A stretch of DNA of 64,000 nucleotides from Patescibacteria group bacterium (GTDB taxonomy: Bacteria; Patescibacteriota; Patescibacteriia; Patescibacteriales; JBAZCA01), in the NCBI GenBank assembly GCA_041661405.1, contig JBAZUL010000009.1, positions 464-64,463 on the forward strand, read 5' to 3'. The position numbers and the translations under genes were made by a program. Below the pieces are notes generated by a model. That model was given only the letters and a program-made list of their open reading frames with translations. It did not search any database and was not told the origin of the DNA. Positions 24,951 through 28,360 of this stretch are shown piece by piece. The first letter of the stretch is position 1. The number at the start of each line of letters is the position of its first letter.

Positions 24951-26240
24951 TCAATTCTTCAGCCCGATTGTCTTCCTAAACCCAATCCGGTCGCGGGCGA
25001 GATTATCCGCGCCAAACATCAAACCCCGGACAACCGTGTATTCGCCGTATTTGTCGTTTAATTTGTCCATAGCCAGGCTTATGCTCCGCGGTTTCAGGTT
25101 ATCGCGAAAAAGGTTAGCCTGGCCGGAGATTGGCGCGAGCCTCGCAACTGAGACGGCGAGCAATCTCACCGGCAGCAGCATTTCCGTTTTCATGATAAAG
25201 TCATGGATCGGATTAAAAATCTCTTCGGTTGTAAAAACTTTGTCCCTGGGCGTGAATAGCTTATTCAGCCCGCTTACTGTCGGACGGTTTGCCCATCCGC
25301 CCGGTGATGCTATTTTTCCATCGTCCGCTTCGGCCGGCTTATTGCCCGACCATCTCGCGTAACCGGCGTAAAAATTTATTTTTCGCGCTTCTAGCCCGAG
25401 CGAACGCAGCCGACGGCCGGTCTTTTCGCATAACTTGTACATGATTTTTAAAAGATACTTTTTGTCTTTGGTCTTTTTTGGAAGGCAGTATGAATGGCCG
25501 ATGGATTTTGGCAAGGCTTCTTCTCGCGCCACGCTGGAAATCTCCCGGCCGTTAACGTTTGCCCAAAGGTAATATCCGTAGCTTCCAAGCTGTCTTTTTA
25601 TATCAACCGGGTCATAATTTTTTAGCTCCAGCAGATTATTTATCCTCAAAGTCTTAAGCCGCGCCTCCATGCGGTAATTAATTCCCCAAGCGTCCTTCAA
25701 ATCCCGGCCTTTTAAAATCGTTTCCAGATTACCTCTCTCTATTACTATTATTCCGTCTTTTTCCGCGATGTCGCCGGCAAACTTGGCTAAAAACTTAGTA
25801 AAAGAAATGCCGATTGAGCATTTTAGCCATTCGCCGATTTCCGCTTTTATCCTCGCTTTAATTTCCAAAGCGAGGTTTTTTGCTTCCCTATAATTTTTCA
25901 CCCAGCCGGATAAATCCAAAAACGCTTCGTCAATACTGTAAGGCTCTAGCGCATCAGAATACTCGGCTAGGAGTTTAAATATTTTTTCCGTAGTAGACCG
26001 GTATTTAGCCGGTTCGTTTTCCACCAATATCGCGCCAGGATCCAGTTTTAAGGCATCTGACACCCGGCAGCCGGTTTTTATGCCCTTAGCTTTAGCTTCG
26101 GCTGATGACGCGATAATACAGCCGCCGGGAGACAGATAGGCGCAGACTCCGACGGATTTTCCCCGCAAAAAAGGATTGGCCTGCTGTTCCACACTGGCGA
26201 AATAGCTATTCATGTCAATGTGAAGGATAATTCTTTCCAT
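24951..26240 (-). CDS. dinB: Y-family DNA polymerase IV
   Basis: ILHIDMNSYFASVEQ and SIDEAFLDL are the catalytic motifs, and the little-finger region is present. A Gly/Pro-rich insert of about 35 aa lies near residue 300. Confidence 0.9.
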   Translation of the reverse strand: MERIILHIDMNSYFASVEQQANPFLRGKSVGVCAYLSPGGCIIASSAEAKAKGIKTGCRVSDALKLDPGAILVENEPAKYRSTTEKIFKLLAEYSDALEPYSIDEAFLDLSGWVKNYREAKNLALEIKARIKAEIGEWLKCSIGISFTKFLAKFAGDIAEKDGIIVIERGNLETILKGRDLKDAWGINYRMEARLKTLRINNLLELKNYDPVDIKRQLGSYGYYLWANVNGREISSVAREEALPKSIGHSYCLPKKTKDKKYLLKIMYKLCEKTGRRLRSLGLEARKINFYAGYARWSGNKPAEADDGKIASPGGWANRPTVSGLNKLFTPRDKVFTTEEIFNPIHDFIMKTEMLLPVRLLAVSVARLAPISGQANLFRDNLKPRSISLAMDKLNDKYGEYTVVRGLMFGADNLARDRIGFRKTIGLKN

Positions 26241-26248
26241 ATAAGTTC
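26234..26248. promoter_or_regulatory. candidate LexA site overlapping the dinB start codon
   Basis: TTTC-catataa-GTTC has the same half-sites and spacing as the lexA operator TTTC-gctattt-GTTC. It is the weakest of the three sites. Confidence 0.35.
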
Positions 26249-26315
26249 ATACCTGCCCCGCAAAATGAGCGAAGCGAATTTGTGCGGGGTCAATATGAAG
26301 AATGATTCTTTCCAT
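26247..26315 (-). CDS. 22-codon upstream ORF duplicating the first 9 codons of dinB
   Basis: The uORF encodes MERIILHIDPAQIRFAHFAGQV*. Its stop lies 6 nt before the dinB ATG. Its first 27 nt match the dinB 5' end except for 3 changes, all synonymous. Confidence 0.4.
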   Translation of the reverse strand: MERIILHIDPAQIRFAHFAGQV

Positions 26316-26480
26316 AAAAGCCAAGCAAGTTTTAAACCCAACCCTAAATTAGCCAAAGCTCTTCGCCTTGAATACAAGAGTCCAAATTTATTCTTATTCC
26401 AACTCCAATAGCTCAAAAATATCAATCACTGGTTCTTCGTAAGGATGGACTTTTTACGAGGTTTTTGGATCTCATACGCT

Positions 26481-26840: not shown

Positions 26841-26874
26841 AAATTTTATCTTGTTTATTCATAATTTTTATCTT

Positions 26875-27723
26875 TCATCTGTTTAGCTTATCTCTATCCA
26901 AATCTTTTAAATTTTTCTTTTCCTCTGACTTTAATTTTCTCTCTACTTTTTTAACATCCTCTATTGCCGGCAGATTTTCCGGATAAATACCTCGAGAAAT
27001 CAAAGTTTTTCTGACACTGCGATTATTAGTGATATGCTCCTCGGAAATGCTTTGCTCTGTATTTAGCTGTTTATTCTTTGTGTTAAAAATAGTAATCTCT
27101 GTGGCAAAATCTTTTGCTTTCAAAATAATTGTCGGCTGAAAATCGGATAATGGTCTGGATCGCGGGACTTTTAATCTACCTTTCATCTCTTGAGTTGTAT
27201 AACCAAATAATGCCTTGTCTCCCTTACTTCTAATTAAAGCAAAATTTCTATCGCTGCCTGTTTGCTGAAAAATAACTCCTGACAATTGTTTTTCTGTAGT
27301 AGAAAGTTTTTGTCTTGCCTGCAATCTCTCAATCTCTTGTATTTTCTTCTCTATAATTTCAAATTTTCTTGTTTGAACGGCAAAGTATGTCTGCGCAAAA
27401 GCTATTTCTTCTTTGCGCGGGTCGCCATTTTGGGCGATTAAATAACAAGCATAGCGAGTGAGCATAATATCCTGAACTTCTCTTTCGCTTCCAGAGCCAA
27501 GTTTGACCATTTTCCCGACGCCGGCAAAATGGTAGGAAATCACATGACCAGTATTTTCACAGGCAATTTTTGCCTTGGAAATAACGCCGATAAAATTATC
27601 CCACTTGTCATAACCCAATAATTGTTGCAAATCGCGCGCCAACCAAAACTCAATTCCATTTTCTGTTTTATGGGCGTATGACTCAAAATTATTTGTTAAC
27701 GATTGTATAATTTCCGTTTTCAT
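26875..27723 (-). CDS. dinD: DNA damage-inducible protein D-like (Bro-N/KilA-N-type N-terminal domain)
   Basis: NGIEFWLARDLQQLLGYDKWDNF...MLTRYACYLIAQNGDPRKEEIAFAQTYFAVQTR matches my recollection of the DinD family. Confidence 0.65.
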   Translation of the reverse strand: MKTEIIQSLTNNFESYAHKTENGIEFWLARDLQQLLGYDKWDNFIGVISKAKIACENTGHVISYHFAGVGKMVKLGSGSEREVQDIMLTRYACYLIAQNGDPRKEEIAFAQTYFAVQTRKFEIIEKKIQEIERLQARQKLSTTEKQLSGVIFQQTGSDRNFALIRSKGDKALFGYTTQEMKGRLKVPRSRPLSDFQPTIILKAKDFATEITIFNTKNKQLNTEQSISEEHITNNRSVRKTLISRGIYPENLPAIEDVKKVERKLKSEEKKNLKDLDRDKLNR

Positions 27724-27896
27724 AAATGTTTTTATTATTCAATTCATTATGAATTCCTCAATCTTAATCTCGCTGTCTGCGGAGTTGTAAATAATGATTT
27801 GATTATTCTTAGATTGTTTGTTCGGCATAATTATTGAAGATTTTATAACCTCAATATATCTATTTATCCCTAATATTAGTATAGTTGATTTTTCGT

Positions 27897-28142
27897 TTAC
27901 TCGCAATAAACCTCCTCCAGCCGCCAGGAAAGGTCGCGGGTAAAAAAGGCCAGGCGGAAAAAATTCAGGCTGTCGGAAACGCTGAAATAATAAATTTTGT
28001 CGTCACCGGATTTTTCGTTGTGCACTAAATTCAGCTTATCAATTTTATAAGTCCGGCCGTGCCATTTAAAAAAAGTCGGCAAAACCTGATTTTGGGAAAA
28101 TTTTACCAGGACATCCACTGGTTCATTGATTTTTTCATGCAT
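27897..28142 (-). CDS. small hypothetical protein (81 aa) divergent from lexA, behind an operator-bearing promoter
   Basis: MHEKINEPVDVLVKFSQNQVLPTFFKWHGRTYKIDKLNLVHNE...SWRLEEVYCE. The F-W-GR-Y...W-L pattern resembles small proteins found beside SOS mutagenesis genes (weak recollection). Confidence 0.55.
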   Translation of the reverse strand: MHEKINEPVDVLVKFSQNQVLPTFFKWHGRTYKIDKLNLVHNEKSGDDKIYYFSVSDSLNFFRLAFFTRDLSWRLEEVYCE

Positions 28143-28251: not shown

Positions 28252-28280
28252 ATTATACCGAACAAACAACGAACAGTAAA
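28252..28280 (-). promoter_or_regulatory. promoter of the 81-aa gene with an embedded GTTC-N7-GTTC operator (28260-28274)
   Basis: The minus strand reads TTTACT-gttcgttgtttgttcgg-TATAAT. Confidence 0.65.
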
Positions 28281-28331
28281 CACATCAACTAATTTAGCTG
28301 TAATTAGCCATAATAAAGTCAATCTAACAAT

Positions 28332-28360
28332 TTGACTTTCGCTATTTGTTCGTATATAAT
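28332..28360 (+). promoter_or_regulatory. lexA promoter with an embedded TTTC-N7-GTTC operator (28337-28351)
   Basis: TTGACT-ttcgctatttgttcgta-TATAAT. The spacer sequence TTCGcTaTTTGTTCG matches TTCGtTgTTTGTTCG of the divergent promoter. Confidence 0.7.

Follow-up and report, generated by a model that had tools for sequence, protein, structure and literature searches.

Integrating elements such as phage 21 and e14, which insert in icd, and SXT/R391, which inserts in the 5' end of prfC, replace the end of their target gene with a synonymously diverged copy. The small palindromic elements, including MITEs (miniature inverted-repeat transposable elements), REP/REPIN sequences, Rickettsia palindromic elements, mitochondrial GC clusters, and mycobacterial MIRUs, are tiny non-coding hairpin inserts that are GC-richer than their surroundings. 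Here, we describe an apparent 75-nt insertion at the start of dinB, the DNA polymerase IV gene, of a Patescibacteria group bacterium (GenBank assembly GCA_041661405.1, contig JBAZUL010000009.1). The window is the whole 64,000-nt stretch analyzed (positions 464 to 64,463 of the contig), and coordinates are window positions unless another contig is named; dinB, the upstream open reading frame (uORF) that precedes it, the repeat copies, and the hairpin are all on the minus strand. Like phage 21/e14 and SXT/R391, the locus has direct repeats that copy a gene terminus, with an extra copy that differs synonymously and a gene that stays intact. Those elements, however, are kilobases long, encode an integrase, and use one fixed target, whereas the insert here is 43 to 44 nt and the same hairpin occurs at two unrelated genes. 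The insert resembles the small palindromic elements in being a tiny, non-coding, GC-richer hairpin with presence/absence polymorphism that is tolerated in or beside coding sequence, and MIRUs also create small open reading frames (ORFs) that overlap or abut neighboring genes. Small palindromic elements, in contrast, occur many times per genome with target duplications of 0 to 10 bp, compared with one copy in 64 kb and a duplication of about 32 nt here. Neither group fits fully.

The dinB ORF (24951-26240, minus strand) encodes an intact protein of 429 amino acids with matches to the Pfam IMS family and 93% identity to P0001 (numbers beginning with P denote DinB homolog proteins, and L001 to L017 are relative or homolog contigs fetched for comparison). 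The best homologs are DNA polymerase IV proteins of Parcubacteria/Falkowbacteria-type candidate-phyla bacteria. Compared with L001, the contig of the closest relative, the window dinB has a synonymous divergence of 0.22 and a pN/pS of 0.17, indicating purifying selection. A preliminary description of the window reported a 22-codon uORF ahead of dinB and a 27-nt duplication of the dinB start with three synonymous differences, and both were confirmed by direct reading. The uORF (MERIILHIDPAQIRFAHFAGQV followed by TGA; 26247-26315, minus strand) opens in the extra repeat copy with an ATG at 26315-26313, crosses the hairpin, and stops at a TGA at 26249-26247; 6 nt (ACTTAT) then separate it from the dinB ATG at 26240. 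None of the relatives examined has it. Between the 27-mers at 26289-26315 and 26214-26240 there are three differences, all at third-codon positions and synonymous, and MERIILHID is encoded by both; 100 shuffles of the window produced zero comparable 27-mer pairs. The true extent of the repeat is 32 nt (26289-26320 versus 26214-26245), with 28/32 positions identical and a spacing of 75 nt, in frame with dinB, the additional 5 nt upstream of each ATG being CTTTT and CTTAT, respectively.

The downstream copy, R (26214-26245, minus strand), is the authentic dinB start: it consists of 5 nt of upstream sequence and codons 1 to 9, it is joined to the gene body, and its variable codons, ATT ATC CTT CAC, are those of the relatives L001, L003, and L004, which have an empty site. 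The extra copy, L (26289-26320, minus strand), is joined to the native upstream region and consists of CTTTT and codons 1 to 9, with ATC ATT CTT CAT at the variable codons, states that match the 74%-identity relatives L008 and L009. It has no change at any non-synonymous position. Between the two copies is a 43-nt unique segment (26246-26288, minus strand) made up of a 34-nt bulged hairpin and a 10-nt tail (CAGGTATGAA); it is absent from L001, L003, and L004 and is homologous to positions 7128-7173 of contig L005, described below. A bulged hairpin is indeed present as first described, although the core, CCCCGCA(C)AAAT-11 nt-ATTTTGCGGGG, is at 26256-26289 (minus strand) and not at 26251-26288. 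It is single copy in the window, with a DNA fold z of -2.9. In the predicted RNA fold, the stem extends to 26246-26299 (-23.1 kcal/mol, z = -3.6), with the uORF stop in the 3' arm and an end 6 nt before the dinB AUG. A search of Rfam gave no match to this region, whether at gathering thresholds or with E values allowed up to 10. The 48-nt spacer gave no significant local alignment with the flanking DNA (the sequence upstream of the L copy and dinB; shuffle p = 0.22-0.54). The idea that the spacer and tail are native dinB leader, prompted by resemblances to L008, L009, L016, and the sequence upstream of the L copy, was dropped (shuffle p = 0.06-0.54).

The dinB upstream regions of relatives were compared with that of the window. 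In L001, which has about 95% nucleotide identity on both sides of the site, the same upstream genes and intergenic DNA run directly into a single ATGGAAAGAATTATCCTCCACATTGAC-ATGAAT. A scan of JGI metagenomes with the dinB 27-mer, with degenerate third positions, detected two further contigs, L003 and L004, both empty-type. In each of these three independent closest-relative contigs, the shared upstream DNA is fused to one dinB ATG and the 75 nt are missing. A single dinB start is found also in the 74%-identity relatives L006, L008, and L009 and in the 57%-identity relative L016. The filled allele is identical in three assemblies: the window, the Logan contig L002, and the MEGAHIT k141 contig L014. 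By alignment with the empty sites, the window carries a lineage-specific 75-nt insertion composed of 43 unique nt and a 32-nt duplication, and of the explanations offered in the preliminary description it is the scar of a small insertion with a duplication that agrees with the single dinB start on the same upstream DNA in L001, L003, and L004. The uORF is not conserved in any relative examined. Between the window and L001 there are 5 differences in the 40 nt upstream of L and 9 in 67 nt when L is included, and none in the next approximately 80 nt.

About a quarter of the listed DinB homologs are annotated from MNSYF, which would leave the protein lacking the HID-motif catalytic Asp. In L006 (1150-1200), the gene truly begins at a TTG, nine codons farther upstream, and at least there the annotation is a start-codon error and not a truncation. 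Similar insertions had been suspected in the homologs that start at MNSYF, a reading rejected in view of the TTG-start miscall in L006. The GC-rich N-terminal extension of P0104 was likewise rejected, being a different GC-rich upstream region with no duplication.

The same hairpin was found at one other locus. A two-arm hairpin scan of one genome per GTDB species returned one match, in a metagenome-assembled genome of the candidate phyla radiation (CPR), where the element is at 7128-7173 of contig L005 (CAYIEH010000002.1). The window and L005 hairpins are identical at 38 of about 42 positions, including both arms, the base before the stem, and 11 of the 12 bases in the loop, and each stem is followed by CA(G/A)GT; the L005 stem is lengthened by a compensatory 2+2-nt paired insertion (AAATCT/AGATTT). 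The arms are 11 to 12 nt, and the DNA fold z values are -2.9 and -5.1 for the window and L005 elements. A covariance model scored the two elements at 66.9 and 71.4 bits, with nothing else above 16 bits. The L005 element lies directly after an FtsX/MacB-type ABC-permease gene whose end is GAAGCTTTAAGATATGAATAG, and past the element is a second gene-end copy, GAAGCGCTTAGATATGAATAA. Both copies read EALRYE-stop, the last six codons and stop of the gene, and their four differences, among them TTA to CTT and TAG to TAA, are synonymous without exception. The L005 structure is repeated in an independent assembly, L013, and the element is also present in L012; the relatives at the permease locus, L010 (84%) and L011 (78%), have neither element nor duplication.

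Both loci have a common polarity: extra copy, hairpin, short tail, and authentic copy attached to the gene. At either locus only 43 to 44 nt separate the flanking repeats, with no recombinase gene, and the repeats are about 32 nt and non-identical, not the 2 to 10 bp target duplication of the DDE transposase type. No further copies were detected by covariance model in the 64-kb window or in 17 kb of L012 (filters off for both), or in the other fetched loci, and no hairpin element was found in three scans of viral contigs or by phage BLAST. A six-frame peptide search for the element against 5.8 billion proteins gave one match, P0241, on contig L017 (JGI 3300050517, Ga0495744_02367459). This 1-kb, very AT-rich contig has a large inverted repeat (129-650) of 44-nt and 54-nt tandem units that contain ATTCGCTTCGCTCATTTTGCGGGG, 24 nt identical to the loop and 3' arm of the window hairpin; it yielded no informative Pfam, phage, or plasmid match. 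The ATTCGCTTCGCTCATTTTGCGGGG match hints at a wider family.

We consider it probable that the uORF is a by-product of a recent insertion at the dinB start by a small family of CPR hairpin elements, accompanied by a gene-preserving duplication, and not a conserved leader. The hairpin would be a member of a small insertion-element family in candidate-phyla bacteria, and the element would have inserted at the extreme start of dinB, giving the 43-nt unique segment and a 32-nt direct target duplication. Such a long flanking duplication would rebuild a complete start or stop, leaving the gene intact and allowing gene termini to be tolerated as sites. The uORF would then simply be the upstream dinB-start copy, orphaned, with its frame continuing into the element as far as the first stop. 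Since only two loci are known, the element family should be regarded as a lead rather than as an established class.

The differences between the copies bear on how the insertion arose. The chance that random changes spare both peptides is 0.007 for the window (3/3 synonymous) and 0.002 for L005 (4/4), and therefore both copies at each locus seem to have diverged while they were functional gene termini. Selection on the uORF peptide is not the cause, because the extra copy in L005 lies after the stop codon, and the L copy is not an old drifting relic, because it has no non-synonymous change although the synonymous divergence of dinB is 0.22. Most simply, L and R probably trace back to two dinB alleles that had diverged and were brought together by recombination. 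A single crossover inside the shared TATGGAAAGAAT, between -3 and +12, is compatible with all four L/R differences: at -3, L has the host-like state, whereas at +12, +15, and +21 it has the foreign one, and R shows the opposite pattern. The alleles may have been mixed by Campbell-like integration of an element carrying a gene-end copy, or by later allelic replacement up to the heterology boundary. A donor or resident allele with ATGGAAAGAATCATTCTTCATATTGAC as the sole dinB start is predicted.

A mechanistic variant of the proposed insertion is site-specific or Campbell-type integration, in which a circular or ends-in intermediate arrived with its own approximately 32-nt dinB-start copy from a previous host, so that the repeats would be attL/attR-like hybrids and not a staggered-cut duplication. 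The four L/R differences agree with one reciprocal crossover between -3 and +12, the L005 repeats are likewise compatible with a single crossover, in the shared AGATATGAATA, and prophages and integrative and conjugative elements that replace gene ends with synonymous mismatches (phage 21/e14 in icd, SXT in prfC) are a precedent. However, the 43 to 44 nt between the repeats contain no recombinase gene, a double-stranded circle of 75 nt is implausible on physical grounds, the presence of one hairpin family at two unrelated targets is unlike site-specific integrases, and the origin of the first copy at a new gene is unexplained; we therefore regard integration of this type as rather unlikely. Equally doubtful is the reading that the hairpin marks an undescribed class of approximately 45-nt non-autonomous CPR elements that insert at extreme gene ends with an approximately 32-nt gene-end copy, perhaps integrating by homology (Campbell-like, ends-in), and that spread between related genomes. 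In such a class, the flanking repeats would resemble orthologous, synonymously diverged gene termini because the elements integrate via homology with the carried copy.

Several points weigh against insertion by a hairpin-element family. Only two element loci are known, and mobility is deduced just from presence/absence at those two sites. The element is single copy in 64 kb and in 17 kb, whereas multiple copies are expected of MITE-like elements. No enzyme is known that generates a duplication of approximately 32 nt, and none was identified here. No donor allele with ATC ATT CTT CAT was found in the JGI metagenome scan, which contained only empty-type alleles. In principle, the empty alleles could have arisen secondarily, through a deletion between the repeats, in which case the change would have run the other way.

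The preliminary description also raised leader-peptide control. On this reading, an evolved cis-regulatory leader, the uORF and hairpin would tune DinB synthesis as a leader-peptide or attenuation-type control, or through LexA bound at the dinB start. In its favor, the in-frame uORF begins in a good start context, encloses a stable hairpin, and stops 6 nt from the dinB AUG, a GAAC-N7-GAAA sequence spans the junction, and the synonymous-only differences could suggest selection on the peptide. Yet the uORF and its peptide are missing from every relative examined (L001, L003, L004, L006, L008, L009, and L016), including the closest, in which dinB experiences the same purifying selection. The predicted fold of the dinB leader has a single stable hairpin (-23.1 kcal/mol), and no U-tract, competing fold, or terminator/antiterminator alternative was seen; the LexA-like site is at chance level and without box context; and in L005 the same hairpin with a recoded duplication follows a stop codon, where no peptide is possible. 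The non-conservation appears to have largely refuted an evolved leader, which we consider very improbable. A comparably small probability attaches to an off-target integration by a Cas1-Cas2-like enzyme. Cas1-Cas2 spacer integration produces a target duplication of about 28 to 36 bp around an insert of 33 to 45 bp, and a duplication of approximately 32 nt with a 43- to 44-nt insert fits this reaction at both loci, but the insert is the same conserved hairpin in two genomes and not a random fragment, and the repeats are non-identical. Neither a CRISPR array nor an obvious cas gene is seen nearby: no array was found in the window by TRF or repeat search, and the absence of an obvious cas gene applies to the dinB-lexA neighborhood, the part of the window in which ORFs were annotated. 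A CRISPR-like reading of the locus, as a 32-nt spacer with a hairpin repeat, was rejected, since the window has no array and the same hairpin occurs with different flanks in only two places.

Two simpler origins seem more improbable still. A tandem duplication or replication slippage of the dinB start, with divergence in place, would account for a direct repeat in frame at 75-nt spacing. Plain tandem duplication is nevertheless excluded by the 48-nt spacer, which is not a diverged copy of the flanks, being unlike both dinB and the DNA upstream of the L copy, and yet is homologous to sequence of another genome; in addition, L differs only synonymously and carries outgroup states, a pattern that a non-coding copy drifting in place would not yield. 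A metagenome assembly artifact that fused two strain variants might be suspected because L and R look like strain variants and the ENA assembly with the filled allele also has two other dinB lineages, P0003 and P0004. The structure is, however, identical in the window, the Logan assembly, and the MEGAHIT k141 contig, where the 107-nt L-element-R unit is shorter than k = 141; the approximately 14-nt stretch common to the copies is too short for a graph mis-join, and the second locus is also found in two assemblies. Both of these origins are extremely unlikely.

If the hairpin-element insertion is correct, dinB transcription would still start at the LexA-controlled operon promoter approximately 2 kb upstream. 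Ribosomes would initiate at the old context, now the uORF ATG, melt the -23 kcal/mol hairpin, terminate at the UGA in the hairpin 3' arm, and reinitiate at the dinB AUG 6 nt downstream. The geometry for this is present, with the TGA at 26249-26247 and the ATG at 26240 on the same predicted mRNA, and the uORF keeps the original A/U-rich initiation context. A hairpin that ends 6 nt before the dinB AUG would be expected to hinder direct 30S loading. We infer that dinB is probably translated by termination-reinitiation, an option also named in the preliminary description, as a consequence of the insertion and not as an evolved regulator. The purine stretch noted earlier before dinB is unsupported as a ribosome-binding site because this genome hardly uses Shine-Dalgarno motifs: such motifs precede 4/42 long window ORFs against a background of 8.5%. 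Start regions in the window are A/U-rich, and initiation appears to be Shine-Dalgarno-independent.

The window arrangement resembles termination-reinitiation coupling and uORF-dependent unmasking, in that the stop is 6 nt from an AUG and the hairpin could be melted by uORF translation. Unlike known translational coupling, it appears accidental, is lineage-specific and unconserved, and is known from sequence alone. There is also a likeness to programmed bypassing (T4 gene 60; the byp elements of Magnusiomyces mitochondria), with a 40- to 50-nt hairpin insert in coding sequence and GAC at possible take-off and landing sites. It differs from bypassing in that the take-off codon has no stop directly behind it and the second family member lies after a stop codon. 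Translational bypass was rejected as needless, the downstream copy having retained an ATG of its own.

The likely SOS control point of the operon ending in dinB is a region between lexA and a gene for an 81-amino acid protein (28252-28360), which contains divergent sigma-70-like promoters, each overlapped by a LexA box: CGAACAAACAACGAAC at 28259-28274 (plus strand) and CGAACAAATAGCGAAA at 28337-28352 (minus strand). In this lineage, the LexA box is a direct repeat, CGAAC-N6-CGAAC (GAAC-N7-GAAC), a type known from Alphaproteobacteria, and boxes of this type also lie beside lexA in L008 (about 1272-1290 and 1360-1378). Terminator prediction gave no minus-strand candidate between 28142 and 26240; with none predicted from the LexA-box promoter to dinB, dinB is probably the last gene of the SOS operon. 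The order of the operon is probably the 81-amino acid gene, a Bro-N gene, a gene for a 119-amino acid protein, a gene remnant, and dinB. The LexA-like GAAC-N7-GAAA site noted earlier at 26234-26248 (minus strand), which reads TGAACTTATATGGAAA, is present as a sequence but is not supported as an operator: it lacks the CGAACAAA context, does not match the local box CGAACAAAnAnCGAAC, and occurs at chance frequency, there being 7 instances of the pattern in the window against 4.3 expected. It is judged a chance match formed at the junction of the insertion tail with dinB codons 1 and 2. The GAAC half is derived from the tail and is absent in empty alleles, so the site is unconserved at orthologous dinB starts.

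For dinB itself the outcome is deflationary: the uORF would be an insertion accident, with SOS control at the operon promoter, and as a dinB regulatory feature the locus is ordinary. Of more general relevance is the occurrence of one tiny hairpin in two distant candidate-phyla genomes, flanked in each by an approximately 32-nt terminus-restoring duplication that differs only synonymously. If this is a family, it would represent a mobile element whose flanking repeat is unusually long and preserves the gene, and a direct trace of recombination between diverged strains in unculturable organisms. It also carries a warning for annotation, as uORFs that mimic a protein N terminus can be insertion footprints.

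Other rearrangements are found near dinB. Just upstream, at 26394-26475 (minus strand), is the frameshifted remnant of a CutA1-like gene for a 109-amino acid protein that is intact in L001 (2594-2923), L003, and L004; the remnant has a 248-nt internal deletion with a junction near 26455/26456, a second recent rearrangement immediately upstream of dinB. L001 has an IS3-family transposase (rve) and a Shedu-like SduA_C gene (1-1523) just upstream of the SOS operon, and neither is present in the window counterpart (26841-28142). A gene with a Bro-N domain (26875-27723, minus strand) lies between the 81- and 119-amino acid genes in the window and in L014, and is not at that position in L001; the gene content of the SOS operon therefore varies between close relatives. 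Inside dinB, at approximately 25275-25350 (minus strand), there is an in-frame insertion of approximately 72 nt in the little-finger region (residues ~298-322), with a GC content of 0.59 compared with 0.47 for the gene. It is absent in P0002/L008, and P0001 has the same length of 429 amino acids as the window protein.

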